Notes under the pieces: generated by a model
Database searches by the model: none
Told to the model about the DNA's origin: nothing
The model's input: the letters and a program-made list of their open reading frames with translations, nothing else
Virus record (IMG/VR): IMGVR_UViG_3300037424_001682
Location: 1-64,000 of that record
DNA length: 64,000 nucleotides
Strand: one strand, 5' to 3'
From: a virus
Lineage: Duplodnaviria > Caudoviricetes
Translations under genes and position numbers: made by a program
Shown here: positions 23,607 through 41,384 of the stretch, one piece after another
How the letters are laid out: each line of letters starts with the position of its first letter
Position numbering within the stretch: the stretch's first letter is position 1

Positions 23607-25125
23607 ATCATATCTAATCATATTTAATGTAGACAAATATACAAAACTTTTGACTTTTATTAAAAATAATTTAGTTTTTTTTATGAAAATGTTGAAATTT
23701 AATTTTTTTATTAGTATTTATTATTGGTGGGTATATATACCCAAATTATCAAATGTTATTAACTGAATCACATATAATTAAACGTTCTCATTCTTTTTAT
23801 AAAGAAATTGATTTATTGTGTTTTAAATCAAAAAATCTTTATAATTATGCTAATTATATTGTGAGACAAAAGTTTATTGAAACATCTAAACTAAAAGAAC
23901 GGGGTTTAAAACAAAACGCTGAATGGATCAGATATCACCAGCTACATAGTATGCTTCTTGATCAAGTTGATTATACTGCGCTCCCTGCTAAAGTCTCTCA
24001 ACAGGTTTTGTTAAACCTGGACAGAAACTGGAAATCATTTTTTGCTTCAATAAAAGATTGGGTCAAGAATCCTTCAAAATATAACGGTAGACCAAAGTTA
24101 CCAAAATATAAACACAAAACGAAGGGTAGGTTTGTTTTGAATTATACTTCTCAAGCTGTTTCCAAAACAGAATTAAGAAAAGGGTTTGTGAAGTTGTCCC
24201 TGACAAACATAAAAATAAAGTACATTAACAACCAATATCCCATACGACAGGTAAGGATAGTACCATTAAAAAATAAGAATTATAAAGTAGAGATAATTTA
24301 TGATAGAAACATAGTTAAATACAGTAGTCAGAAACATGCTTTAATGTCAATAGACTTAGGAGTTAATAATTTTGCAACCATAACGACAAATCAAAAAGGG
24401 GTGTCCCCTATGGTGATTAAAGGTGGAATACTAAAATCAATTAACCAATATTATAATAAGCAGTTGTCAAAATACAAATCTGAGTTACCATATTATAATT
24501 TTACCAATAAAGATGATAACACAGAAAAGAAACAAGTTTCTTATTCTAACAAGATTTACGGATTAACAAGAAAGAGAAACAATAAGATTAATTATTGGAT
24601 GCATTTGTATTCAAAAAGGATCGTTGAATATTGTTTGAAAAACAATATAGGAGAAATTGTTGTCGGAGTTAACAAGGGCTGGAAGCAAGAAACTGAAATG
24701 GGTAAGAAGAACAATCAGAATTTTGTAACTCTTCCTTATTCTAAATTCAGACAGATGTTAGAATACAAAACAGAGTTGGCGGGCATTAAATACAAAGAAC
24801 AGGAAGAGAGTTATACATCAAAAGCATCCTTTTTAAATTTAGATCCTATACCAGTGTACAGAAAGAATAATAAAGAGAATTATAAATTTTCTGGATACAG
24901 GGTTAGTGGTAAGAGGGGATTGTATAAAATAAAAAACAACACATTACCACAAGGTAAAGAACTACGTATTAACTCAGATGTAAATGGGTCGTATAACATC
25001 TTAAGAAAAGCATTCCCCAATGAGTTTTCGGAGGGGATAGAGGGCATTGTAGTATGTCCAGTGATATTTGATTTAGATCAGATGCACAAAGCAGAGACTG
25101 TTAACAAAAGTTAAGGGTTTTTGTT
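23607..25125 (+). mobile_element. non-autonomous IS200/IS605-superfamily element (solo tnpB); ends approximate
   Basis: tnpB without an adjacent Y1 tnpA; palindrome TGGGTATATATACCCA at 23728-23743; hairpin GGGCAT-TGTAGT-ATGTCC at 25042-25059 near the right end. Confidence 0.6.
23753..25114 (+). CDS. tnpB: TnpB-family RNA-guided endonuclease
   Basis: SKNLYNYANY, PKLPKYK, RuvC-I SIDLGVNN, EESYTSKASFL, RuvC-III INSDVNGSYNILRK. Confidence 0.9.
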   Translation: MLLTESHIIKRSHSFYKEIDLLCFKSKNLYNYANYIVRQKFIETSKLKERGLKQNAEWIRYHQLHSMLLDQVDYTALPAKVSQQVLLNLDRNWKSFFASIKDWVKNPSKYNGRPKLPKYKHKTKGRFVLNYTSQAVSKTELRKGFVKLSLTNIKIKYINNQYPIRQVRIVPLKNKNYKVEIIYDRNIVKYSSQKHALMSIDLGVNNFATITTNQKGVSPMVIKGGILKSINQYYNKQLSKYKSELPYYNFTNKDDNTEKKQVSYSNKIYGLTRKRNNKINYWMHLYSKRIVEYCLKNNIGEIVVGVNKGWKQETEMGKKNNQNFVTLPYSKFRQMLEYKTELAGIKYKEQEESYTSKASFLNLDPIPVYRKNNKENYKFSGYRVSGKRGLYKIKNNTLPQGKELRINSDVNGSYNILRKAFPNEFSEGIEGIVVCPVIFDLDQMHKAETVNKS

Positions 25126-27471: not shown

Positions 27472-30400
27472 ATGTTTACTAATACGGCAGAACAGAATAA
27501 AATAGAAGAATATTTTCAATTTGATAGTAGAAATTTATTAATTGAAGCACTCGCAGGGTGTGGTAAAACGCATACTATTGTAAATGCTGTTAGATTATTA
27601 CCTCCTAATTCAAAAATAACTTTTTTAGCATTTAATAAACACATTCAAACTGAATTAAAATTAAAATTACCAAACAACGTATATTGCTATACATCACATG
27701 GTCTTGGTAGAGGTGGTATAACTAGAAAATATAAGGATGCTGAATTAGATGAATTTAAAATAGATAAAATAATCACTACAAAGGCAAAAAAATGGGATTT
27801 AAGTGATTTTGCGTATGAAGAAGAATTGGAATTATATTTAAAATCAATAAAACAATTAACTTCATTATGTAAATTAACACTTACAACACAAAAAAAGAAG
27901 ATTCCAGACCTTGCAGATAAATATAATGTACCGATTTTTACTGATAAAGATGTGAATCGTGTATTATCAATATTAGAAACGTCTATTAATGATAAAAAAA
28001 CATATGATTTTGATGATATGGTGTTTTTACCTGCTGTTGATCCTAAAATATGGTTATTTCCACAAGATTATGTACTTGTTGATGAATGTTTTCCACATAA
28101 CCAATATATTTCAACAGAAATCGGAAAGAAAAAAATAGGTCATTTAGCTAAAATGTTTGAAACTGGTAAAACAATGCCAAAAGTGGAAACATTTAATGAA
28201 CAAACCAAATCATTCGAAAAGAAAAATATTGTAAAAGTTTGGTGTAACGGCGAAAGAGATATTTATGAAGTTGTTGTTGGTGGGAAAAGAAAAATTAAAT
28301 CAACAAAAAACCACAAATATTTGACTCTTAATGGCTGGAAAAGATTAGATGAATTAAAATTTGGTGATGCAATATTATCTAATTATTCTGACCAACCATA
28401 TCGTGGAGTACTTAATGAACCACAAGAAGATATATTTATTGGTAGTATGTTAGGTGATGGTTCATTACATAATTTATCTAAAAACATTTCAAGAATAAGG
28501 ATTATTCATGGAAAGGAACAAAAAGACTATATTGAATGGAAAGCATCTTTTTTTAATTCTAATGTTGAATTAGTTGAAGAAAATGGTTTTGCAAATAAAA
28601 TTGCATATAGATTCACATCTAAAGGATTTTATTTTGATGATAAATATAAAGATGTTAAGAATATTATTGATAATATCACATTAAAATCTTTAGCTATTGC
28701 TTGGATGGATGATGGGAATATATCATCAAATTATTATTCATCAAGATTATATTCGTGTGCCGAAAGTAAAGAACATTCAGAGTATTTGTCTGAAAAAATG
28801 GAAAAAATGTGGAAAATCAAATCACAAGTAAAGTCGGAATTATCGTCTTCAACAAAAAAAGAATATTTTTGGTTGTTGTTTAATAAGGAAAATACCGAAA
28901 GATTGAGTAATTTAATTTCCCAATTTATTCACCCAAGTATGGAATATAAAATTTGTCCTAAAGATAGAAAAAATATTAATCAAAACGCTTGGAATTTTGA
29001 TAATAATCAATATGGGTGTATGATTGTTACGAAAGAAGCGAAATATATAAAAACAGATAATGTTTATGATATGGAAGTTGAAGATAATCATAACTTCATA
29101 ATAACACCCCAAACCTATACCAAAACAGTAAAAGCGAAAGATTATGGATTTATTGCACACAATTGTCAGGATATGAATAGGGCACAACAAGAATTGATTA
29201 AAAAAATACTAAAAAAAGATAATAAAACTGGTGAAATTATTGGTAGATTAATTTCTGTTGGTGATAAACATCAATGTCAACCAAAAGGGACAAAAATTTT
29301 AATGTCTGACGGTACAGAAAAAAATATTGAAGATATTAAAATTGGTGATTTAGTAGTTTCATATAATAGAAAAGAAAAGGGTCAATTCGTCGGAAAATAT
29401 ATTAGAAAGGTTAGTGATCGGTTAAGAAATAAAGCACCAAAGGTTGAAAAAATTTCAAAAAGAAAAATAAATGAAAATCTTATAAAAGTTTCATCTAACA
29501 ATAAATTTTCTTTATATACTTCTAATCATAAAGTTATGGTTAGATTTAAAAAAGAATCATTAAATAAATACGTTTTATATTTAATGAGAAAAGATATTCA
29601 TTACAGAATTGGTATTGTTAAATTATGGAACGGTAAAAATGATTTTGGAGCATTTAGAGCAAGACAAGAAAATGCTGATGATTTTTGGATATTAAAAACA
29701 TATGATAATAAATTTGATGCATATACTGATGAACAATATTATTCGTTAGAATATAAAATACCTCAATTAATTTTTAATTATAGAGATCAGAAAGGTAATA
29801 TTAATCAAACCTATATTAATAAGTTTTATAATAAAATTAATAAGGAAGAATTATTAAACAATTCAAATAAGCTATTAAATTTATTTGGCAGAGATATTAG
29901 ATATCCTTTTTGGTCAAAAGAAAATAATAATTATTTTAGTAGAAATCATATGTTTGAATTACATGCTTGTAACATAATTGAAAATGATATGCAAATGATT
30001 CATTTTGATGACTCAAACATAACACTTAGAACACACGGTAAAACTAAAAGAACAAATAAAATAATTAGACCAACTTATCATAATATTGACGGATTATCGA
30101 AAGAATTTTATTCTGATTATGTTTATTCCTTAAAAATTAGTAAATATGAATTATATGTTGCAGATGGAATATTAACACATAATAGTATCTACGGATTTTC
30201 AGGATCAGATTCTAATTCATTTGAATGGTTTAGAAAATACCCTAACACAATAACATTGCCATTAACAACAACATTTAGATGTTCTAAAGAAGTTGTTAAA
30301 CATGCAAATAAAATAGTTCCAGATTTAAAAGCGATGGAAAATGCTCCACGTGGTTCAGTTAAAAATGGTGATGTTTTAAAGGAAGCCCGTAGCGGTGATT

Positions 30401-30966
30401 TTGTTTTATGTAGGAAATCGTTACCATTGGTTAAATTATTTTTTCAATTTTTAGGCCAACATAAAAAAGCAATAATTAAAGGTAGTGATATTGGTAATTC
30501 TTTAATTGAAATTGTTAAAAGAAAAAGAAATATTGATGTACTTAAAGCAAATTTAAAGGCAGAGCTAAAAGATTATGCCCAAAGAGTAAAATCAACGGGA
30601 GTATTAAATGTTAAAGAACATTCTGGATATTCAGCATTGGAAGATAAAATTATGACACTGTTATTTATTGCTGAAACATGTTCAGATATGATTGAATTAA
30701 AGGATAAAATAAATAGTATTTTTACTGATAAAATTGAAGGCATTGTATTAAGTACAGTACATAAAATTAAAGGATTAGAAGCCGATAGAGTATTTATTAT
30801 TAAACCAGATATTCTACCAATGCAAACAGCAAAAGCGTGGGAATATCAACAAGAAAAAAACTTGGAATATGTTGCAATAACACGTGCACGTCACGAACTA
30901 ATATATGATCATTTATGGGATGACGAAAAAATATCCTTGGCAGAGTTAAAAAACACATTGTTATGA
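27472..30966 (+). CDS. SF1 (UvrD/Rep-like) helicase precursor with two inteins
   Basis: Walker A ALAGCGKT; after splicing Walker B VLVDE|CQD and motif III GDKHQ|SIYGFSG; TFRCS, STVHKIKGLE, YVAITRAR. Confidence 0.92.
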   Translation: MFTNTAEQNKIEEYFQFDSRNLLIEALAGCGKTHTIVNAVRLLPPNSKITFLAFNKHIQTELKLKLPNNVYCYTSHGLGRGGITRKYKDAELDEFKIDKIITTKAKKWDLSDFAYEEELELYLKSIKQLTSLCKLTLTTQKKKIPDLADKYNVPIFTDKDVNRVLSILETSINDKKTYDFDDMVFLPAVDPKIWLFPQDYVLVDECFPHNQYISTEIGKKKIGHLAKMFETGKTMPKVETFNEQTKSFEKKNIVKVWCNGERDIYEVVVGGKRKIKSTKNHKYLTLNGWKRLDELKFGDAILSNYSDQPYRGVLNEPQEDIFIGSMLGDGSLHNLSKNISRIRIIHGKEQKDYIEWKASFFNSNVELVEENGFANKIAYRFTSKGFYFDDKYKDVKNIIDNITLKSLAIAWMDDGNISSNYYSSRLYSCAESKEHSEYLSEKMEKMWKIKSQVKSELSSSTKKEYFWLLFNKENTERLSNLISQFIHPSMEYKICPKDRKNINQNAWNFDNNQYGCMIVTKEAKYIKTDNVYDMEVEDNHNFIITPQTYTKTVKAKDYGFIAHNCQDMNRAQQELIKKILKKDNKTGEIIGRLISVGDKHQCQPKGTKILMSDGTEKNIEDIKIGDLVVSYNRKEKGQFVGKYIRKVSDRLRNKAPKVEKISKRKINENLIKVSSNNKFSLYTSNHKVMVRFKKESLNKYVLYLMRKDIHYRIGIVKLWNGKNDFGAFRARQENADDFWILKTYDNKFDAYTDEQYYSLEYKIPQLIFNYRDQKGNINQTYINKFYNKINKEELLNNSNKLLNLFGRDIRYPFWSKENNNYFSRNHMFELHACNIIENDMQMIHFDDSNITLRTHGKTKRTNKIIRPTYHNIDGLSKEFYSDYVYSLKISKYELYVADGILTHNSIYGFSGSDSNSFEWFRKYPNTITLPLTTTFRCSKEVVKHANKIVPDLKAMENAPRGSVKNGDVLKEARSGDFVLCRKSLPLVKLFFQFLGQHKKAIIKGSDIGNSLIEIVKRKRNIDVLKANLKAELKDYAQRVKSTGVLNVKEHSGYSALEDKIMTLLFIAETCSDMIELKDKINSIFTDKIEGIVLSTVHKIKGLEADRVFIIKPDILPMQTAKAWEYQQEKNLEYVAITRARHELIYDHLWDDEKISLAELKNTLL
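28087..29163 (+). mobile_element. intein 1 of the helicase (359 aa, LAGLIDADG)
   Basis: starts CFPHN, block B STKNHKY, IGSMLGDGS and WMDDGN motifs, ends FIAHN|C. Confidence 0.92.
29275..30183 (+). mobile_element. intein 2 of the helicase (303 aa, non-LAGLIDADG insert)
   Basis: starts CQPKGTKI, block B TSNHKV, ends VADGILTHN|S. Confidence 0.9.
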
Positions 30967-32327: not shown

Positions 32328-32759
32328 TTATTTAACTGGTTCATATTTAGCTTCATTCCATCTTAGGGATATATTAGGATTTTCACTATCCATTTCTAAC
32401 CAATATATCACTGTTGGGGTTTGTTTCACGAGTACAGTAAATCCGTTGGGGTATGTTTTTGCACTGGTTTCCATTCCATTTAAAATTATTCTAGTCCCTT
32501 CTAACCAAGAATCCGTAACACTACCATTATGAACGGAATGACTTATAAGGACAATTTCATATAAATATTTGTATGAAATTAATGATTTTCTATTTGAATC
32601 ATCAACTAATGTTTTTGTTATGTATGCTTCTATTGATACTTTAGTGTTGATTCCTTTAATAAAATTAGCTGTTCCAAAATGTCTATATATTTCTGAATCT
32701 TCCCCTAAAAGAACAAATGACATTAACAAAAATAATATTGTAATAAAAAATCGTTTCAT
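32328..32759 (-). CDS. hypothetical exported protein
   Basis: MKRFFITILFLLMSFVLLG signal-peptide-like start; GTATTTATA upstream. Confidence 0.6.
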   Translation of the reverse strand: MKRFFITILFLLMSFVLLGEDSEIYRHFGTANFIKGINTKVSIEAYITKTLVDDSNRKSLISYKYLYEIVLISHSVHNGSVTDSWLEGTRIILNGMETSAKTYPNGFTVLVKQTPTVIYWLEMDSENPNISLRWNEAKYEPVK

Positions 32760-32776
32760 TTTATTATTTTATTTTT

Positions 32777-32785
32777 TATAAATAC
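32777..32785 (-). promoter_or_regulatory. putative late promoter GTATTTATA
   Basis: upstream of 32759. Confidence 0.6.
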
Positions 32786-32812
32786 TTTTTTGAAGACAAA
32801 AAAAATGGAAAT

Positions 32813-34288
32813 TTAATTATCCGTAAATTTAAAAAATATATTATCTTTATTTTTACTTTTACCTGCACATCTTCTAGATATTGTAGACTGAGAAATATTT
32901 TTATAATATTTTGATGTTTCTGTTGTTGATTCAAATTCCATTATTGTTTTTAGAGAAACTGGATCATATGCAATAACCCCTTTACATATTTTGTCTTTTT
33001 GTTTTTTACTTAAACCGAGTTCTTTTTTTCTTTTACTTATTTTTTCTTTTGTTTCGTTTGATATTGATTTACCAAGCCAAAATTTAGGCGAACTATCACT
33101 TAAATGTTTTTTTTCTTCTTTTGTTTTTGTTTTACCATATTTTTTTGCTTCTAAAGTGCCTGCTTTACTAACTCTATTATTAATCCAAATTGTTGTTTGT
33201 TTGATTCCTTTATGTGATGTGGACATTTTTAATAAAGTTTCCTCATTAGGTATTGAATTTTTACCGCCACTTTCTAAATTATATCCAACTTTTCTATTGG
33301 TAGAATCATAATAATTAATCCAGTAAATTTCTTTTTTATTTAATTCTTCAATATTAGATGCGGTGTCAATTATTTCGAAATTAAAATTATCAAACCCATG
33401 TTTTTTAAATGAATTATTTAAATATTCATTACCGAATCCTCTTTTATAATCATTAATTCTATCATTAAATGATCTTGTTGTTTGTCCAACATATATTTTA
33501 TTATTAATCTTATTTTTTATCGAATATATTAATCCAAAACAAGAAAGATCTCTTTTTGGATATGGTAATAACAAATGTTTTATATTTTTTTTATATTTAT
33601 TGTTATTTTTTTTTTTGTCAAAAAAATAGAAATATCTTCTTTTTCTATATTGTGAAATGAATGTTGCGTTTGGATATTTATTTAAAATAATTTCTTTTTT
33701 CATAGAACCAAATTCTTTTCTTATTGATCTAGAATATCTTAATTTACCATCAATAAGCACTGAAAATCTTTTAGTTTCTTTATTATTATTATAATTACCC
33801 GACATTAATCCAACATAATACCAATTTAATGACTGGTAAATGGTGCCAATTTCACCAGCAGAAGGATCAACTGTTGCTGTAATTATTCTGTATTTTGTAT
33901 TTGTTTTTAACCATAAATATATTTTAGATATAAAGTATGATGCCGTGTTTTTTGGTGTCCACCATAAACAAACCCCTCTTGATAATAATAATATTTTATC
34001 ATCAAAACCATATTTATCCCAAACACCAGTATTTTGGGCATAATCATCTGAAAATATTAAAACACCCCCTAAATATTCTTTCCCATCAATGTTAAAGTAA
34101 ATACCAAAATGATATCTAGTTATTAATGGAATAGTTTTTAACCATTCATATTCTAGAATAATTTTTTTTGCAAGATTTTTTTTAATTGGTTTAATAACAG
34201 TATTTTTTAAATCACATTTATTGTGATCAAAACTTAATTTTTCAGTTTTTTCTTTTTCTTTTCTTATTTTATATTGGTGAGCAATCAT
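32813..34288 (-). CDS. Mom-like (GNAT-fold) DNA-modification domain fused to a GIY-YIG endonuclease with NUMOD-type tail
   Basis: LSRGVCLWWTPKNTASYFIS, TVDPSAGEIGTIYQSLNWYYVG and LPYPK match Mom-family motifs; then GLIYSIKN...IYVGQT...R and ELNKKEIYWI (GIY-YIG), plus NUMOD3-like repeats. Confidence 0.75.
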   Translation of the reverse strand: MIAHQYKIRKEKEKTEKLSFDHNKCDLKNTVIKPIKKNLAKKIILEYEWLKTIPLITRYHFGIYFNIDGKEYLGGVLIFSDDYAQNTGVWDKYGFDDKILLLSRGVCLWWTPKNTASYFISKIYLWLKTNTKYRIITATVDPSAGEIGTIYQSLNWYYVGLMSGNYNNNKETKRFSVLIDGKLRYSRSIRKEFGSMKKEIILNKYPNATFISQYRKRRYFYFFDKKKNNNKYKKNIKHLLLPYPKRDLSCFGLIYSIKNKINNKIYVGQTTRSFNDRINDYKRGFGNEYLNNSFKKHGFDNFNFEIIDTASNIEELNKKEIYWINYYDSTNRKVGYNLESGGKNSIPNEETLLKMSTSHKGIKQTTIWINNRVSKAGTLEAKKYGKTKTKEEKKHLSDSSPKFWLGKSISNETKEKISKRKKELGLSKKQKDKICKGVIAYDPVSLKTIMEFESTTETSKYYKNISQSTISRRCAGKSKNKDNIFFKFTDN

Positions 34289-34332
34289 AGAGCCTGATTT
34301 TTATTTATACTTCTTTTTTTATTATTCAATAA

Positions 34333-34362
34333 CAAATATAAAAAAAAGCTGCAAATTTGCAA
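34333..34362 (-). promoter_or_regulatory. Bacteroidota-type sigma70 promoter for the Mom-GIY-YIG gene
   Basis: minus strand TTG (34362-34360), 19-nt spacer, TATATTTG (34340-34333). Confidence 0.55.
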
Positions 34363-34367
34363 CCATT

Positions 34368-35975
34368 TTAATTATTTATTTCGTATCTATATTTTCCACA
34401 ATCCCATATTCTGTCAAAACCAACTTCTTTCATCATTTCCCACTCAGTTTTTTTATCATCATAAATTTTAGGAAACCTTTTTTTTATATTTTTTTTACCA
34501 AAACTAAATTTATGAAATCTTTTATATCTATCAAATTTGGAGTTATAATAATAATAATCAGGATCTAATATATTAACTAATTTAAAACCCAATTTAGTAT
34601 ATAAATTATTGTTTTTTTCTGGTGTCCATCTTATATCAGCAAATGATATAATTTTTTTTGGATTATATTTTTTTATAAAAAATTTTAATATTCTTGAGCC
34701 AATTCCATTTATTTTATATTTGTTTTTAACAGCAAATCTTGTTAATTCATATATAGTATGATCATGATCCTTAGTTTTATTCATATGTCTTTTATTATTA
34801 AAACACATCATGGCGACTATTTCACCATTTAATTCTGCAACTAACGATATGTTTGATTTATCATTACCTTGTAAATGATTCTCGTTTAAAAAATTAGATT
34901 TATATGTTGGATTATTAAGTTCATAAATTATACATTTTCTTGCGTGTAAAATTTCTTTATTGTTAATACCCAATATATGTGAAATTTTATCAATAATTAT
35001 TGTTGGTTTATAATGTATTTCATCCTCAAATATATGATATAAATTTATGTTTTTATCTTTAGCGAGCAATGTTTTATTTAAATGATATTTCTTATTTTTC
35101 CCACCAAAAATTTCTGTGTGATATAAATTACCATTAATTTCAAAACCGATATTATTGTAAAGTAAATCTATCTCTAAACCATTTAATATTTTTCTATTAC
35201 TTTGTTCAAAAGTAATGTTAATGTTTTCTTTTATAAAAAACTCTAAAGATGAAAAATTTTTTAATGTGGTAGTATAATTATTTTTAAGTTTTTCCTTTGT
35301 TTCTGACGAAATTAATAAATTTTCGTGTTTTATTTTATATTCTAATTGAGTAATTCCGTGTTTTTTTAATAAATGTGTGTTTGTAATCATTTTATAATGT
35401 TTTTTACAAATACAACACTCCACCATATCATCATAAATTTCTTTCTTTATATATTTTTTTTCATCGGGATATTCTTTTAAATATACATCTAAGTCAATGT
35501 TATGGATAGATTTTAAATGCTTCTCATATGAACCTGCTTTATTCTCGATATCGTGTGTTGTCCAATCACAATATTTACATTTTTTTCTTTCTTTATTTTT
35601 TATTTTCAAAAAATAAAAATATTCGTCATACCAAAATTTTCCGTTTTTATATTCAATGGATTTTCGAATATAATTTGATGGTATTATTATATCATTATAT
35701 GTTTTTTTTAGATGTTCTGTCAGACAACCAGATTTGTTTTTATAATCGTAAAAAAATTTGTTTGTCTTTTTACATTTACAAACAATATGATATCCATTTT
35801 TATTAGGATAATTAATCTCTATTTTTTTTTCAAAATCAAAACTCATCATTTGTTTTTGAATAAAACCAAACGAATATGAATGTTGTTTTGCTAATTTTCT
35901 AAGTGATGTTCCTGTTTTATATTTTAAATATATATCATTTAAAATATTTATTGGTATTTCTATTTTTTTTATCAT
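34368..35975 (-). CDS. zinc-finger + Vsr/DUF559-like endonuclease + GNAT/Mom-like fusion protein
   Basis: CKYCD..H..H and CCICK..HL..H zinc fingers; EIDL...IGFEINGNLYH...HIFEDE nuclease motif; ELTRFAV...GIGSRIL...IISFADIRW...LYTKLGF GNAT motif. Confidence 0.7.
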   Translation of the reverse strand: MIKKIEIPINILNDIYLKYKTGTSLRKLAKQHSYSFGFIQKQMMSFDFEKKIEINYPNKNGYHIVCKCKKTNKFFYDYKNKSGCLTEHLKKTYNDIIIPSNYIRKSIEYKNGKFWYDEYFYFLKIKNKERKKCKYCDWTTHDIENKAGSYEKHLKSIHNIDLDVYLKEYPDEKKYIKKEIYDDMVECCICKKHYKMITNTHLLKKHGITQLEYKIKHENLLISSETKEKLKNNYTTTLKNFSSLEFFIKENINITFEQSNRKILNGLEIDLLYNNIGFEINGNLYHTEIFGGKNKKYHLNKTLLAKDKNINLYHIFEDEIHYKPTIIIDKISHILGINNKEILHARKCIIYELNNPTYKSNFLNENHLQGNDKSNISLVAELNGEIVAMMCFNNKRHMNKTKDHDHTIYELTRFAVKNKYKINGIGSRILKFFIKKYNPKKIISFADIRWTPEKNNNLYTKLGFKLVNILDPDYYYYNSKFDRYKRFHKFSFGKKNIKKRFPKIYDDKKTEWEMMKEVGFDRIWDCGKYRYEINN

Positions 35976-36005: not shown

Positions 36006-36034
36006 TATATACGATAAAAAACAAAAAAGGTTAC
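36006..36034 (-). promoter_or_regulatory. GTAACC-N15-CGTATA motif
   Basis: upstream of 35975; the GTAACC half lies within the capsid terminator stem. Confidence 0.45.
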
Positions 36035-36051
36035 ATAAATGTAACCTTTTT
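36024..36051 (-). terminator. intrinsic terminator after the major capsid gene
   Basis: AAAAAGGTTACA-TAAA-TGTAACCTTTTT perfect hairpin. Confidence 0.8.
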
Positions 36052-36072
36052 AATTATTTATTTTACTTACTG

Positions 36073-37743
36073 TTATTGTAAGTCACCGATACCGAACACT
36101 TGTAATCCATCTACATAGATTCTACCGTAATAACGGTTAAGAATCATTTTTTTAGCGTAACGTGTCATAATACCACGAATTGGCTTAAAGTCAAATGGGT
36201 TATACATTACAGGAGTAAGCTGCATTGGCACGTACGGCGCGTATATGTAGCCGGATTCGAGAATACTGGTACCTTTGTGACCAATTAACATAGTGTTAGC
36301 TGGTGAATAAGGATCACGATATACTTCATATCGACCATTCAATGAACCGATTTTTTCGATACCCATATTGTATCGATCTTGTTCAGGAGCAGCATTACTT
36401 ACGTGGAAGTATTCAAGATCATCAAGTACAGCACTAATTTCAGGAGAAACTACGATCCAAGAAGCCCCACCTCTAAGAACTGCTTTATGAATTTGAGCAG
36501 AAATTTGGTTGATCTTCATGATCAAAGTTTGGTTCCAGTCTTTTTGAGTACCGTAGTAAGGTGAAGTATATTTTCTCCATCCGTTCCAATCCCATCTAAG
36601 AGTCCATGCAGCACCTCTTCTAAGGTCACGCAATACTTCTCTATCGATTTCAGCAGCCATTTGCTCAGAAAGCAATGCAGTTAATTCTGCTTCTGCGTCA
36701 ATGTTATGGAAAGCACTAACGTCTTGTGCAAGTTCAGGAGTCCATTGTGATCTCATTTTTCGAGTTTCAACATCCACAGTTACTTCATCAAGACCGAAAG
36801 TTACTTCTGCCATTTCACTATCTTCTTCCAGATCAGAGTAAACTCTATATGCGAAGTTGAAAGTAACAGCACTAGTTGCAGCACTAAATGGTTGATAACC
36901 ATCTTGGCCAGGGTAGGTAAGGTCAACAAGTAATGTTAAATCACCGGTTGAAGTTACGATTGGTTGACCATATTTTTGAACCTTAACATTGTAAGGAACA
37001 ATATCACCAGCAGTAATGCTTTCATCAGCAAAAGGAGCAGGAGCGATAAGATCAGTGTCTGCATAAATTTTCAATGATGCAAGGAATGATTCAGAGTCCA
37101 TAGGAACACCAGCAGGACCAACAAGTTTACCTTGATTTGTAGTTGAGAAACCACCAACAACGACAGTTACAACGCTATTACCTTGAGTGTAAGCAGGTGT
37201 TTGTGTAGTTGTACCAGTTACAACTTCAAATCGACCTTTACTTCTGTCAAATAATGAAGTACCTTCTTCGTTATATGCTGTTGCATAGAAAGCATCATAA
37301 AGTGATCTTTCTTCGAATTGAGTTCTTCCAGAAGCTGCTGTAGTTGCTGCGTTTTGGTATGCACCATCAGGAGATGTATGTGCAAACGATCCTGCAGACT
37401 CAACTCTAACACTAGTTTTAGGATTAATGTAATATAATTTACCTATTGGTAAGTTCAATGCTTGTACAGAAACGATATCGTTAGCAAGCAATTTTGCGAA
37501 TACTCTTCGTATTACAGGGAATGCAACGGTTTCAAATTGACCAGATGATGCAGAATCAGTTGATTCGTTAATCATATGTGAAAGTTGGTTCTCAAAAAGT
37601 TGAGCACAGTTTTCTTTCATATGACCATCAAGTCCTTCTAAAAGACCGATACTATCCCATCTATTGGTAATAATTTCTCTTTGTTCTCTAAGTTGTTTTA
37701 TACCTATATTACCAACTGATGCAGATTCAGTTAAAAAACCCAT
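36073..37743 (-). CDS. major capsid protein (T4 gp23-like)
   Basis: RWDSIGLLEGL, AFPVIRRVF...LANDIVSVQ, TRKMRSQW.PELAQD..AFH.IDAEAELTALLSEQ.AAEIDREV, GYIYAPYVP, GIMTRYA. Confidence 0.96.
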   Translation of the reverse strand: MGFLTESASVGNIGIKQLREQREIITNRWDSIGLLEGLDGHMKENCAQLFENQLSHMINESTDSASSGQFETVAFPVIRRVFAKLLANDIVSVQALNLPIGKLYYINPKTSVRVESAGSFAHTSPDGAYQNAATTAASGRTQFEERSLYDAFYATAYNEEGTSLFDRSKGRFEVVTGTTTQTPAYTQGNSVVTVVVGGFSTTNQGKLVGPAGVPMDSESFLASLKIYADTDLIAPAPFADESITAGDIVPYNVKVQKYGQPIVTSTGDLTLLVDLTYPGQDGYQPFSAATSAVTFNFAYRVYSDLEEDSEMAEVTFGLDEVTVDVETRKMRSQWTPELAQDVSAFHNIDAEAELTALLSEQMAAEIDREVLRDLRRGAAWTLRWDWNGWRKYTSPYYGTQKDWNQTLIMKINQISAQIHKAVLRGGASWIVVSPEISAVLDDLEYFHVSNAAPEQDRYNMGIEKIGSLNGRYEVYRDPYSPANTMLIGHKGTSILESGYIYAPYVPMQLTPVMYNPFDFKPIRGIMTRYAKKMILNRYYGRIYVDGLQVFGIGDLQ

Positions 37744-39509: not shown

Positions 39510-41384
39510 TTATCCTAATAAAATATCAATGCCTTTTTGCAATTTGCCTATTTTATTCTCAACCTCTAATATATTTTTCTTAATTGTTGATTCGGTACTA
39601 ATTTGAAGTTCATTTCTTTCGGGAAATAAATAAGCCCCTGGCGTTGAAGGACTTGACACTAAATCAAAAGAAATTAATTCAAAATCATTTTGTACAATGT
39701 TTTTACCATTTACTTCTTCTATTGATCCAACACCACGAGAAGAAATACCTAATCGAATACCTCTTTTTAAATATTCCGCAATCTTATCACCAATCATGAA
39801 GGGTTCGCCTCTTTCCATATATGCTGGTGATGTTATTAATTCTAATTGTCCATATAAAATATTTTCATTGGCACCATTACCCCACCACATTTTTCGAATT
39901 ATATGTGAAAGATTATGTAAAGAAACGACCGAAGAATTACCCGTCCAATGCGCTTTACCATTTACTCTTGTCATAAAATTACCGTTTGGAACTCTAACAC
40001 AAGCAATTTTATCGTTAATATGGATTTTATTTATTTTTATTGATCGTTTATCTAACCAAATATATGAAGTGTTTGATATATGTAAATTATATTGTATTTT
40101 AGAATTTTTAGATAATATTTTTTTTTCGTTTTCAAATATTTCAACAGTGCCATCTTCTAACACCCTTTCTTTTTTATCTATAATTACCCTATCTATTGGT
40201 TGATATGTAGTTATATTACCAGAACCACCAATTTTTATTAAAACTTCATGTAAATCATCAATAAGTTGTTTAGATGTTGAAAAAACAGAGTTTCTTTTAG
40301 TTTTATTTATTGTATTTAAACTTCTACCATCACCCAATCTAAACCAATCGAAAAATGTTTTTAATAAATCGGACGATGCTTGTTTTATTTCATACGGTAT
40401 GTATTTATTGTGTGAATTACCCAAAGGAAATAAATATTTATATAATCTTGCGTCATGAATATGGTATTGTTCTTTACCATCATTAAAATTTTGAACTCTG
40501 TATTCAAAAGGTAATCTATCTAATAATTCTTTTATTTTTTTCTTAGTATTTTCTTTCTTTTGAGTTATACAAATATCATAATATGTTCTTTTATTTGATT
40601 TTACTCCTAAACAATGACCATCAGCAAGATAAATACCTAAAAAAGCAAACCAATCCTCCGCATTGATTGAAATGTTTTGAGTATATTTATATTTTAAGTC
40701 TTTTCTTATACTATATCCCAAATATTCATCTTCTACACCATTTAAAACAAATTCACTTAAAGTTTCACCAATCCACTCGGATTTTTTTAATATTTTATTT
40801 TTTCCTGATGATAATATTCCACCAACATCCTCATAAATTTCTTGTGCAGTCATATAAAACCGAACGCCCTTATTATCTTCTAATAAAAATCTATGGTTGG
40901 GTGTTACTGTTATATCTATAGTTCTTGATTTAAATTCAAACATTTCACCATTATAGTCTTCATAAATTTTCTTATCAATTTTTTGAATTTCAATTTTATT
41001 TGTTTTAGTATTTAATGTTTGAATCTCTTCATTTTCAGAAATATTTTCCCATTCTTTCCACCCATTTTTTGTAAGTATTTGAGAGTCTTTTTCAACCCAC
41101 ATACAGTCGGGGTGATCAGCTTCGGAGACGGCAGAATTCATATCAATTAATTTTTGATATGCTTCAACTTGTGGTACTAATATTTCTTTTGGATAAATTC
41201 TACCGTTTTTATTTTCAGTACCCCACTTTTGTAAAACACAATTAATTAAAATTGGTTGATTAGGGTCTAATGTTAATTTACCTTCGGTTAATAAACTTTT
41301 ATTTAATTGATCATCTATATATCCACTATCTTGTTCTATTAAAATCCCAAAACCAGTTTCGCCTCTTTGTAATATCTTACTCAT
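39510..41384 (-). CDS. prohead protease (T4 gp21-like) precursor with one intein
   Basis: NKNGRIYP, SEADHPD|SSVVSL, LGISSRGVGS, FELISFDLVSSPSTPGA. Confidence 0.92.
   Translation of the reverse strand: MSKILQRGETGFGILIEQDSGYIDDQLNKSLLTEGKLTLDPNQPILINCVLQKWGTENKNGRIYPKEILVPQVEAYQKLIDMNSAVSEADHPDCMWVEKDSQILTKNGWKEWENISENEEIQTLNTKTNKIEIQKIDKKIYEDYNGEMFEFKSRTIDITVTPNHRFLLEDNKGVRFYMTAQEIYEDVGGILSSGKNKILKKSEWIGETLSEFVLNGVEDEYLGYSIRKDLKYKYTQNISINAEDWFAFLGIYLADGHCLGVKSNKRTYYDICITQKKENTKKKIKELLDRLPFEYRVQNFNDGKEQYHIHDARLYKYLFPLGNSHNKYIPYEIKQASSDLLKTFFDWFRLGDGRSLNTINKTKRNSVFSTSKQLIDDLHEVLIKIGGSGNITTYQPIDRVIIDKKERVLEDGTVEIFENEKKILSKNSKIQYNLHISNTSYIWLDKRSIKINKIHINDKIACVRVPNGNFMTRVNGKAHWTGNSSVVSLHNLSHIIRKMWWGNGANENILYGQLELITSPAYMERGEPFMIGDKIAEYLKRGIRLGISSRGVGSIEEVNGKNIVQNDFELISFDLVSSPSTPGAYLFPERNELQISTESTIKKNILEVENKIGKLQKGIDILLG
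39936..41105 (-). mobile_element. intein in the prohead protease (390 aa, LAGLIDADG)
   Basis: starts CMWVEKDS, block B VTPNHRF, GIYLADG and FRLGDG motifs, ends HWTGN|S. Confidence 0.9.

Follow-up and report, generated by a model that had tools for sequence, protein, structure and literature searches.

The stretch of DNA analysed here (the window; 64,000 nucleotides, positions 1 to 64,000 of IMG/VR virus record IMGVR_UViG_3300037424_001682) carries on its minus strand, at 32813..34288, a gene whose 491-aa product joins a Mom-family DNA modification domain to a GIY-YIG nuclease domain and a NUMOD-type DNA-binding region. We interpret it as a Mom-carrying, free-standing homing endonuclease gene of the Seg/I-TevI type, a member of an old family of fusions that is found in uncultured T4-like jumbo phages and occupies a hot spot behind the gene for the gp23-like capsid protein. 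We give this overall reading a probability of about 0.6. The identity and the mobility of the gene are well supported, and a coupling of modification to cutting is a plausible hypothesis. The source record is a viral contig of 78 kb with an estimated completeness of 27%. T4-type head genes, coding for a gp23-like capsid protein and an S77 prohead protease, are found near the fused gene together with a UvrD helicase gene, and the carrier is a large uncultured T4-like phage. The window also has inteins and TnpB, which count among the signs of mobility.

The gene consists of a single open reading frame without interruption, and comparison with PHROGs assigned the two halves of the protein to 'Mom-like DNA modification protein' and 'homing endonuclease'. 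From the N-terminus, the protein comprises a basic segment (aa 1-30, 34199..34288) with the invariant residues Q5 and R9, a Mom-family GNAT domain (aa 31-245, 33554..34198), and a short variable linker of six residues (aa 246-251, 33536..33553), which sits at the natural C-terminus of Mom. The linker leads in the same frame into the GIY-YIG catalytic domain (aa 252-345, 33254..33535), a region with a NUMOD3-like repeat and linker (aa 346-440, 32969..33253), and a C-terminal helix-turn-helix (HTH), NUMOD1-like DNA-binding end (aa 441-491, 32816..32968) that is the most variable part of the family; all of these segments lie on the minus strand. The earlier note on this DNA, made from the sequence alone, had stated that the Mom-type domain runs without a stop codon into the GIY-YIG domain, and this was borne out. 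A contig from a second sample and study (X2) spans positions 32700-33841, including the joint, with 0 differences and 0 gaps. Moreover, the same Mom, GIY-YIG and DNA-binding architecture recurs in at least 119 clusters of proteins (clustered at 90% identity), which come from many metagenomes; the fused-form clusters are 47 to 72% identical and are found on contigs as long as 340 kb, while the fused form was absent from cultured-phage records (0/50,697). A sequencing or assembly error is ruled out by these clusters and by the X2 contig, which is identical across the joint. The related explanation that the fusion is an artefact, or that the mom stop codon was lost very recently, is next to impossible, as nothing was found in its favour, at least 119 clusters at 47 to 72% identity retain the fused frame, and an independent contig crosses the joint with no difference. 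Among the aligned contigs, a 59-nt joint at 33518/33578 was also seen, which relies on 24-letter sides of short contigs, is flagged as unreliable, and is read as the variant linker of a relative.

The N-terminal half was identified by Pfam as Mom (PF25680) over aa 31-245, covering positions 3-202 of the 202 in the profile with 82.1 bits (cut-off 27.1); its score in the genome profile search was 84 bits. The domain is therefore complete, as had been proposed, and it ends with LPYPK (aa 241-245, nt 33554), which is the end point of Mu Mom (...QPYPK, stop). Mu Mom was not retrieved by a single-sequence search of the PDB with the window protein, and a profile search of the PDB gave it an E-value of 0.48. 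Since sequence and profile searches missed or barely scored Mu Mom, a structure comparison was needed. The AF2 model of the 491-aa protein has a pLDDT of 82.6 and its top structural match is Mu Mom 8bv8 (Foldseek E 2e-10; VIA Z 17.3, with 184 residues aligned at an rmsd of 4.1), while other GNATs reached a Z of at most 12.6. The model predicts two helices (aa 186-193 and 198-204) at the position of the HTH-like insertion of Mu Mom, and so presents a GNAT fold with the helical insertion specific to Mom. Mu Mom is a Gly-tRNA(Gly)-dependent DNA adenine modifier in which R111, S124, D149 and Y159 are essential or important, the R151A variant is inactive, and the basic N-terminus supports activity (PMC13219725). 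The first four residues correspond to R104, S117, D141 and Y151 of the window protein, which are conserved in 16 of 16 aligned sequences and invariant in a family alignment of 44 sequences, and the basic segment at aa 1-30 is comparable to the basic N-terminus of Mu Mom. From these residues, the Mom domain looks catalytically competent. In the alignment, R151 of Mu is replaced by S143 here and by S, A or M across the family, and H58/Y59 are replaced by E48/W49 in the window protein. Neither R151 nor H58/Y59 is kept in the annotated Mom-like proteins of Vibrio, Enterococcus and Bastillevirinae phages. The lack of conservation at these positions points to a subfamily whose donor, chemistry or product may differ from those of Mu.

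The C-terminal half was matched by Pfam GIY-YIG (PF01541) at aa 252-329 and by the NCBIfam family of group I intron endonucleases (TIGR01453) at aa 254-486, over positions 4-213 of the 215 in the profile with 87.7 bits (cut-off 56). This nearly full-length match indicates that the C-terminal half is a whole I-TevI/Seg-type enzyme and not a catalytic domain alone, and together with the Mom match it confirms the identity of both halves. Indeed, T4 SegD aligned with the C-terminal module at aa 253-478 (hhalign probability 97.8%, E 7e-13), and the catalytic domain of I-TevI was matched both by profile (E 4e-8) and by structure comparison of the AF2 model (Z 13.2). Residues Y255, Y266, R272, R277, E320 and N337 never vary in the alignment of 44 sequences and are retained in at least 98% of a set of 93, and the GIY-YIG domain is about as conserved as the Mom domain (entropy 1.16 vs 1.0). 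The NUMOD-like repeats announced in the earlier note were recovered in part: three E-E/T-x-x-K-x-S repeats are visible in the window protein and NUMOD3 and NUMOD1 scored in close homologues, but no Pfam NUMOD was detected in the window protein itself at E<=0.1. Judged by their conserved residues, both halves look active.

To place the fusion among its relatives, a tree of 236 Mom domains was computed, in which 120 fused forms make up one clade apart from 111 stand-alone Moms (45 to 55% identity). Rooting was at the midpoint, and some supports are moderate (0.74-0.98). The fusion has a single origin, and is old and widespread. Because it forms one old clade in which both halves are conserved, it does not represent a recent capture of the mom stop codon by a homing endonuclease, an option that had been raised for this gene; the other element of that proposal, a homing endonuclease joined to mom, is the one that agrees best with the distribution. 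There was no sign either that the fusion arose from neighbours of stand-alone Moms, as in loci L013 and L014 the genes downstream of these bear no relationship to the nuclease half. Several derivatives are nested within the fused clade. They include a monophyletic class of 575-aa proteins with the same Mom and GIY-YIG domains and another DNA-binding end, two Mom-only forms (P0127 and P0129, the latter located behind gp23 in L013), and P0079 (421 aa, 16 contigs), which has lost exactly the GIY-YIG catalytic domain and retains Mom, two NUMOD3 and NUMOD1 in frame. Conversely, 16 nuclease modules (240 to 261 aa, 46 to 66% identical) lack Mom or any other GNAT. They begin with real start codons, lie directly behind gp23 and branch from five or more points within the fused clade. 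This at-least-fivefold nesting indicates that Mom is not required for the nuclease to be tolerated and, with P0127, P0129 and P0079, that each half can persist alone.

The gene for the gp23-like major capsid protein lies at 36073..37743 on the minus strand, and the hot spot starts past its terminator. In the relatives compared first, the gene order was protease, a protein of about 540 aa, gp23, Mom-GIY-YIG and UvrD, which suggested vertical inheritance. This view was overturned by a capsid-anchored survey, in which the interval between gp23 and UvrD was compared among loci whose capsid protein is 69 to 89% identical to that of the window, since the content of the interval proved variable. It holds Mom-GIY-YIG in L049, a Hef-like gene followed by Mom-GIY-YIG in the window, L029 and L026/L055 (with a truncated nuclease in L026/L055), a Hef-like gene alone in L017, L021, L023, L064 and others, a plain GIY-YIG gene in L027, and none of these genes in, for example, L016, L025, L028, L035, L036 and L063. 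A Hef-GNAT-GIY-YIG gene is a further occupant of the site behind the capsid gene. In three related genomes rated complete (362 to 371 kb), no Pfam Mom match was found anywhere. In L056, whose capsid protein is 51% identical, the Mom-GIY-YIG gene is inverted. In addition, Mom-domain similarity does not track capsid similarity: the respective values are 82% vs 80% for the window and L049, 62% vs 83% for L003 and L005, and 53 to 58% vs 50 to 52% for distant pairs. T4 has its free-standing GIY-YIG gene segD in the corresponding position, between genes 23 and 24. The variable content of the site, the absence of Mom from the complete relatives, the inversion, the mismatch between Mom and capsid, and the position of segD are hallmarks of a homing endonuclease gene that stands free in a hot spot. 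Close relatives differ in whether they carry the gene at this fixed site, as expected of a homing endonuclease, although such patchiness in a variable region would suit an ordinary accessory gene as well. When the 3' ends of the capsid genes were compared across loci, silent sites were too diverged for an association with the fused gene to be assessed by eye.

Between the capsid gene and the Mom-GIY-YIG gene, the window has a Hef-type homing endonuclease gene (34368..35975, minus strand). Its 535-aa product contains zinc repeats, a Vsr/REase-like core and a C-terminal GNAT, and matches phrog_3339 ('homing endonuclease') over positions 50-534 of 536 (E 9e-66). This gene is an insertion when the locus is compared with L003, L005, L006 and L049, and copies of a 48-nt direct repeat (34334-34381 and 36016-36063; 77% identical) lie on either side of it. 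The repeat duplicates the terminator 3' of the capsid gene, and a terminator-like hairpin after the Hef-like gene (34347..34364, minus strand) is a diverged copy of that capsid-gene terminator. The Mom-GIY-YIG gene is not itself of the Hef type, as it encodes no zinc repeats, Vsr/REase-like nuclease or C-terminal GNAT. GNAT domains are found with this nuclease more than once. A Hef-type GNAT takes the N-terminal place of Mom on the same nuclease module in L018 and L024; this module is 57% identical to that of the window and nested within the Mom-fused clade. In L073, the pair is split into two genes, with a 373-aa protein, whose C-terminal end is a Hef-type GNAT (154 bits), followed by the nuclease module, and a single base separates the stop codon of the GNAT gene from the start codon of the module. 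The profile similarity between the Hef-type GNAT and Mom is weak (hhalign E 0.03), their R/S/D/Y motifs are in register, and some members of the Hef-type GNATs score 22 to 30 bits on Pfam Mom. That Mom has been exchanged at its position for another type of GNAT, and that a two-gene version exists, suggests that the pairing of GNAT and nuclease is itself under selection.

The transcription signals of the region were also analysed. The T4 late-promoter consensus TATAAATA is found at 34302..34309 on the minus strand, starting 21 nt upstream of the ATG. This motif precedes 8 of the 52 genes in the window, against 1.2 expected, and was not evident in the corresponding upstream region of L003, L005 and L006. 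Given the enrichment of the motif upstream of window genes, late expression is the better guess for the Mom-GIY-YIG gene. A promoter of its own of the host type, as claimed in the earlier note, was not upheld, since the region has about as many sigma-70-like matches as chance would give (39 observed vs 37.5 expected). A Bacteroidota-type -7 box (TAnnTTTG) 52 nt upstream was considered and found unconvincing, as the box precedes 6 genes across the window and 3.3 are expected.

In the mechanism that we propose, the C-terminal module would bind and cut the DNA of relatives lacking the gene, near the capsid-helicase junction, and the gene would spread by recombinational repair after this cleavage. 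By analogy with Mu Mom, the Mom domain may transfer an aminoacyl or acyl group to DNA adenines, and the resulting mark could shield the carrier genome against its own nuclease, host restriction or the two together, which would favour retention of the element. As an obligatory mechanism, modifying self and cutting non-self is weakened, as at least five lineages keep the nuclease module without Mom; as a general link it is favoured because the same nuclease module is also joined to a Hef-type GNAT. A more specific version can be put forward only tentatively, and has perhaps a modest chance of being right. According to it, the fusion provides built-in epigenetic immunity: Mom, through the shared NUMOD/HTH region, would place a tRNA-derived acyl mark on adenines within or close to the recognition site of the nuclease, so that the carrier would be immune with no change in sequence whereas unmarked relatives would be cut and converted, and the Hef-type GNATs would play this role in a second nuclease family.

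The protein could instead be a domesticated weapon resembling a single-chain restriction-modification system, in which Mom would mark the phage's own DNA genome-wide and GIY-YIG would degrade the unmarked DNA of the host or of superinfecting phages. The same prediction has been published for Mom-REase fusions of jumbo phages (PMC7824862), and it agrees with the conservation of both catalytic centres and with the recurrence of the GNAT-nuclease pairing in two GNAT types and two nuclease types. We consider it unlikely, however, since the nuclease, by its sequence, appears to be a complete site-specific enzyme of the SegD/I-TevI type, long DNA-binding region included, its module is always located behind the capsid gene whatever the N-terminal domain, complete close relatives are devoid of the gene, and the nuclease survives without Mom in several lineages. 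Rather improbable, and more doubtful than the weapon, is a plain anti-restriction gene, that is, a Mom enzyme tethered by the DNA-binding region of an endonuclease whose nuclease activity is dispensable or vestigial. The loss of the GIY-YIG catalytic domain in P0079, where Mom and the NUMOD repeats were kept, is what this explanation would predict, and stand-alone Moms of the same subfamily are common. Still, that deletion is seen in one cluster only, the GIY-YIG catalytic residues are invariant in a domain conserved about like Mom, and Mom-less nuclease modules persist too.

Homing endonuclease genes co-convert flanking DNA, and Mom could accordingly be mere cargo, an adjacent mom gene having fused with a homing endonuclease gene and been co-inherited with it, with no biochemical interplay. 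The short and variable linker is consistent with such an origin, as is the stand-alone Mom behind gp23 in L013, and one homing endonuclease gene was recently reported to be linked to anti-defence loci (PMC13096335). An independent swap for a second GNAT type at the same position, the two-gene version of GNAT and nuclease, and the fact that a GNAT is a standard part of Hef-type enzymes all argue for more than passive carriage, and make it improbable that Mom is cargo. Were it so, a selfish nuclease would be carrying an anti-restriction gene between phages. The reading that we prefer remains that of a free-standing homing endonuclease gene that carries Mom.

A free-standing homing endonuclease has to spare the genome that encodes it, and the known solution to this problem is a sequence difference at the target site. 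If the fused DNA-modifying domain does protect the carrier, it would represent epigenetic self-protection, unlike the solution based on sequence difference. Epigenetic immunity, if true, would also account for the GNAT domain of the large Hef-like family, which has long lacked an explanation. Nature provides controls for these ideas, namely Mom only, nuclease only, Mom with the DNA-binding region but no nuclease, the swap to a Hef-type GNAT, and the two-gene version. The chemistry of Mom, in which glycine from charged tRNA is transferred to a DNA adenine, was established only in 2026 (PMC13219725), and therefore assays now exist.

When compared with known systems, the N-terminal half shares with Mu Mom its Pfam family, the closest structural match, the conserved equivalents of R111, S124, D149 and Y159, a helical insertion (predicted here), a basic N-terminus and a domain end at PYPK. 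It differs from Mu Mom in its sequence (about 20% identity), in the R151 to S143 and H58/Y59 to E48/W49 replacements, and in being fused to a nuclease. Mu is also temperate, whereas the carrier here is a lytic T4-like jumbo phage. Single-chain restriction-modification enzymes of type IIG/IIL, such as MmeI, likewise combine cutting and modifying in one polypeptide, and are composed of a SAM methyltransferase and a PD-(D/E)xK nuclease. Their one-polypeptide architecture, possibly with one DNA-recognition part, is analogous to that of the window protein, with no homology between them. The C-terminal half resembles T4 SegD and I-TevI, as the catalytic domain and the NUMOD/HTH DNA-binding region are matched full-length through TIGR01453; with SegD it shares a site directly after gene 23, and with some T4 seg genes a late-type promoter motif upstream. 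Unlike the window protein, SegD and I-TevI are without an N-terminal enzyme domain. The segD gene is antisense to gene 23 and the activity of SegD was never shown (PMC2988022). Hef of phage U5 (Sandegren, Nord and Sjoberg, 2005, as cited in PMC2988022) and the Hef-like proteins also join a homing-type nuclease to a GNAT, the R/S/D/Y motifs of which align with those of Mom; Hef differs by its zinc repeats, its Vsr/REase-like nuclease and the C-terminal position of its GNAT.

In a literature search of incomplete coverage, we found no paper on a Mom-GIY-YIG fusion, a result that does not by itself prove novelty. Fusions are not mentioned in the 2026 paper on Mom (PMC13219725), nor is GIY-YIG in the study of Iyer, Anantharaman, Krishnan, Burroughs and Aravind (2021), which described Mom-REase fusions of jumbo phages and predicted for them a logic of modifying self and cutting other (PMC7824862). 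These Mom-REase fusions also combine a Mom domain and an endonuclease in one jumbo-phage polypeptide, and differ in having a nuclease of the REase fold instead of GIY-YIG. The modify-and-cut idea has therefore already been proposed for the Mom-REase fusions (PMC7824862).

Between the gp23-like capsid gene and the Mom-GIY-YIG gene, the window carries as an insertion a gene for a Hef-type homing endonuclease (34368-35975, minus strand), with zinc repeats, an REase-like core and a C-terminal GNAT domain. Copies of a 48-nt direct repeat lie at its two ends (34334-34381 and 36016-36063); the repeat duplicates the terminator located 3' of the capsid gene.

The nuclease module of the Mom-GIY-YIG gene was also found with another partner. 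At two loci from other genomes, L018 (7737-9260, 507 aa) and L024 (8082-9581, 499 aa), the Mom domain is swapped for a Hef-type GNAT, placed N-terminal to the same GIY-YIG/NUMOD module as in the window, and both genes lie at the site that the Mom fusion occupies in the window, downstream of the capsid gene. A two-gene version was observed at locus L073 (4878-6732), where a 373-aa protein comprising an HTH, a Hef N-terminal remnant without nuclease and a Hef-type GNAT ends 1 base from the start of a stand-alone GIY-YIG/NUMOD gene (243 aa). At loci L026 (9736-10764) and L055, a 649-aa Hef-like gene is followed by a 342-aa derivative in which the Mom domain is intact, the GIY-YIG domain only partial and the DNA-binding region missing; this derivative appears to be a copy of the Mom-GIY-YIG fusion in decay. 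Moreover, at loci L031 to L033 (7840-9963), a Hef-like variant of 707 aa, with about 30% identity, has its usual GNAT end replaced by a long, different C-terminal part.

The UvrD-type helicase of the window (27472-30966, plus strand) has 1,164 aa versus 491 to 496 aa in relatives, with intein splicing domains and a LAGLIDADG endonuclease at aa ~228-544, followed by another Hint region at aa ~600-690. The L073 homologue is likewise long (1,134 aa) and contains intein domains. The gp21-like prohead protease (Peptidase_S77; 39510-41384, minus strand) has 624 aa versus 231 to 238 aa in relatives, and its Intein_splicing and LAGLIDADG_3 matches, both weak, suggest that it also harbors an intein. 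An IS605 OrfB/TnpB-like gene (OrfB_IS605 and Cas12f1-like TNB) lies at 23753-25114 (plus strand), and similar TnpB genes adjoin gp23 or Mom in two relatives with stand-alone Moms (L013 and L014).

Mom-like genes may themselves occupy homing-endonuclease hot spots. In the Bastillevirinae phage f2b1 (MN940411.1; locus L012), a 287-aa Mom-like gene (1357-2220) is flanked by the genes for the two ribonucleotide reductase subunits, alpha and beta, a junction that is a classic site for homing endonucleases.
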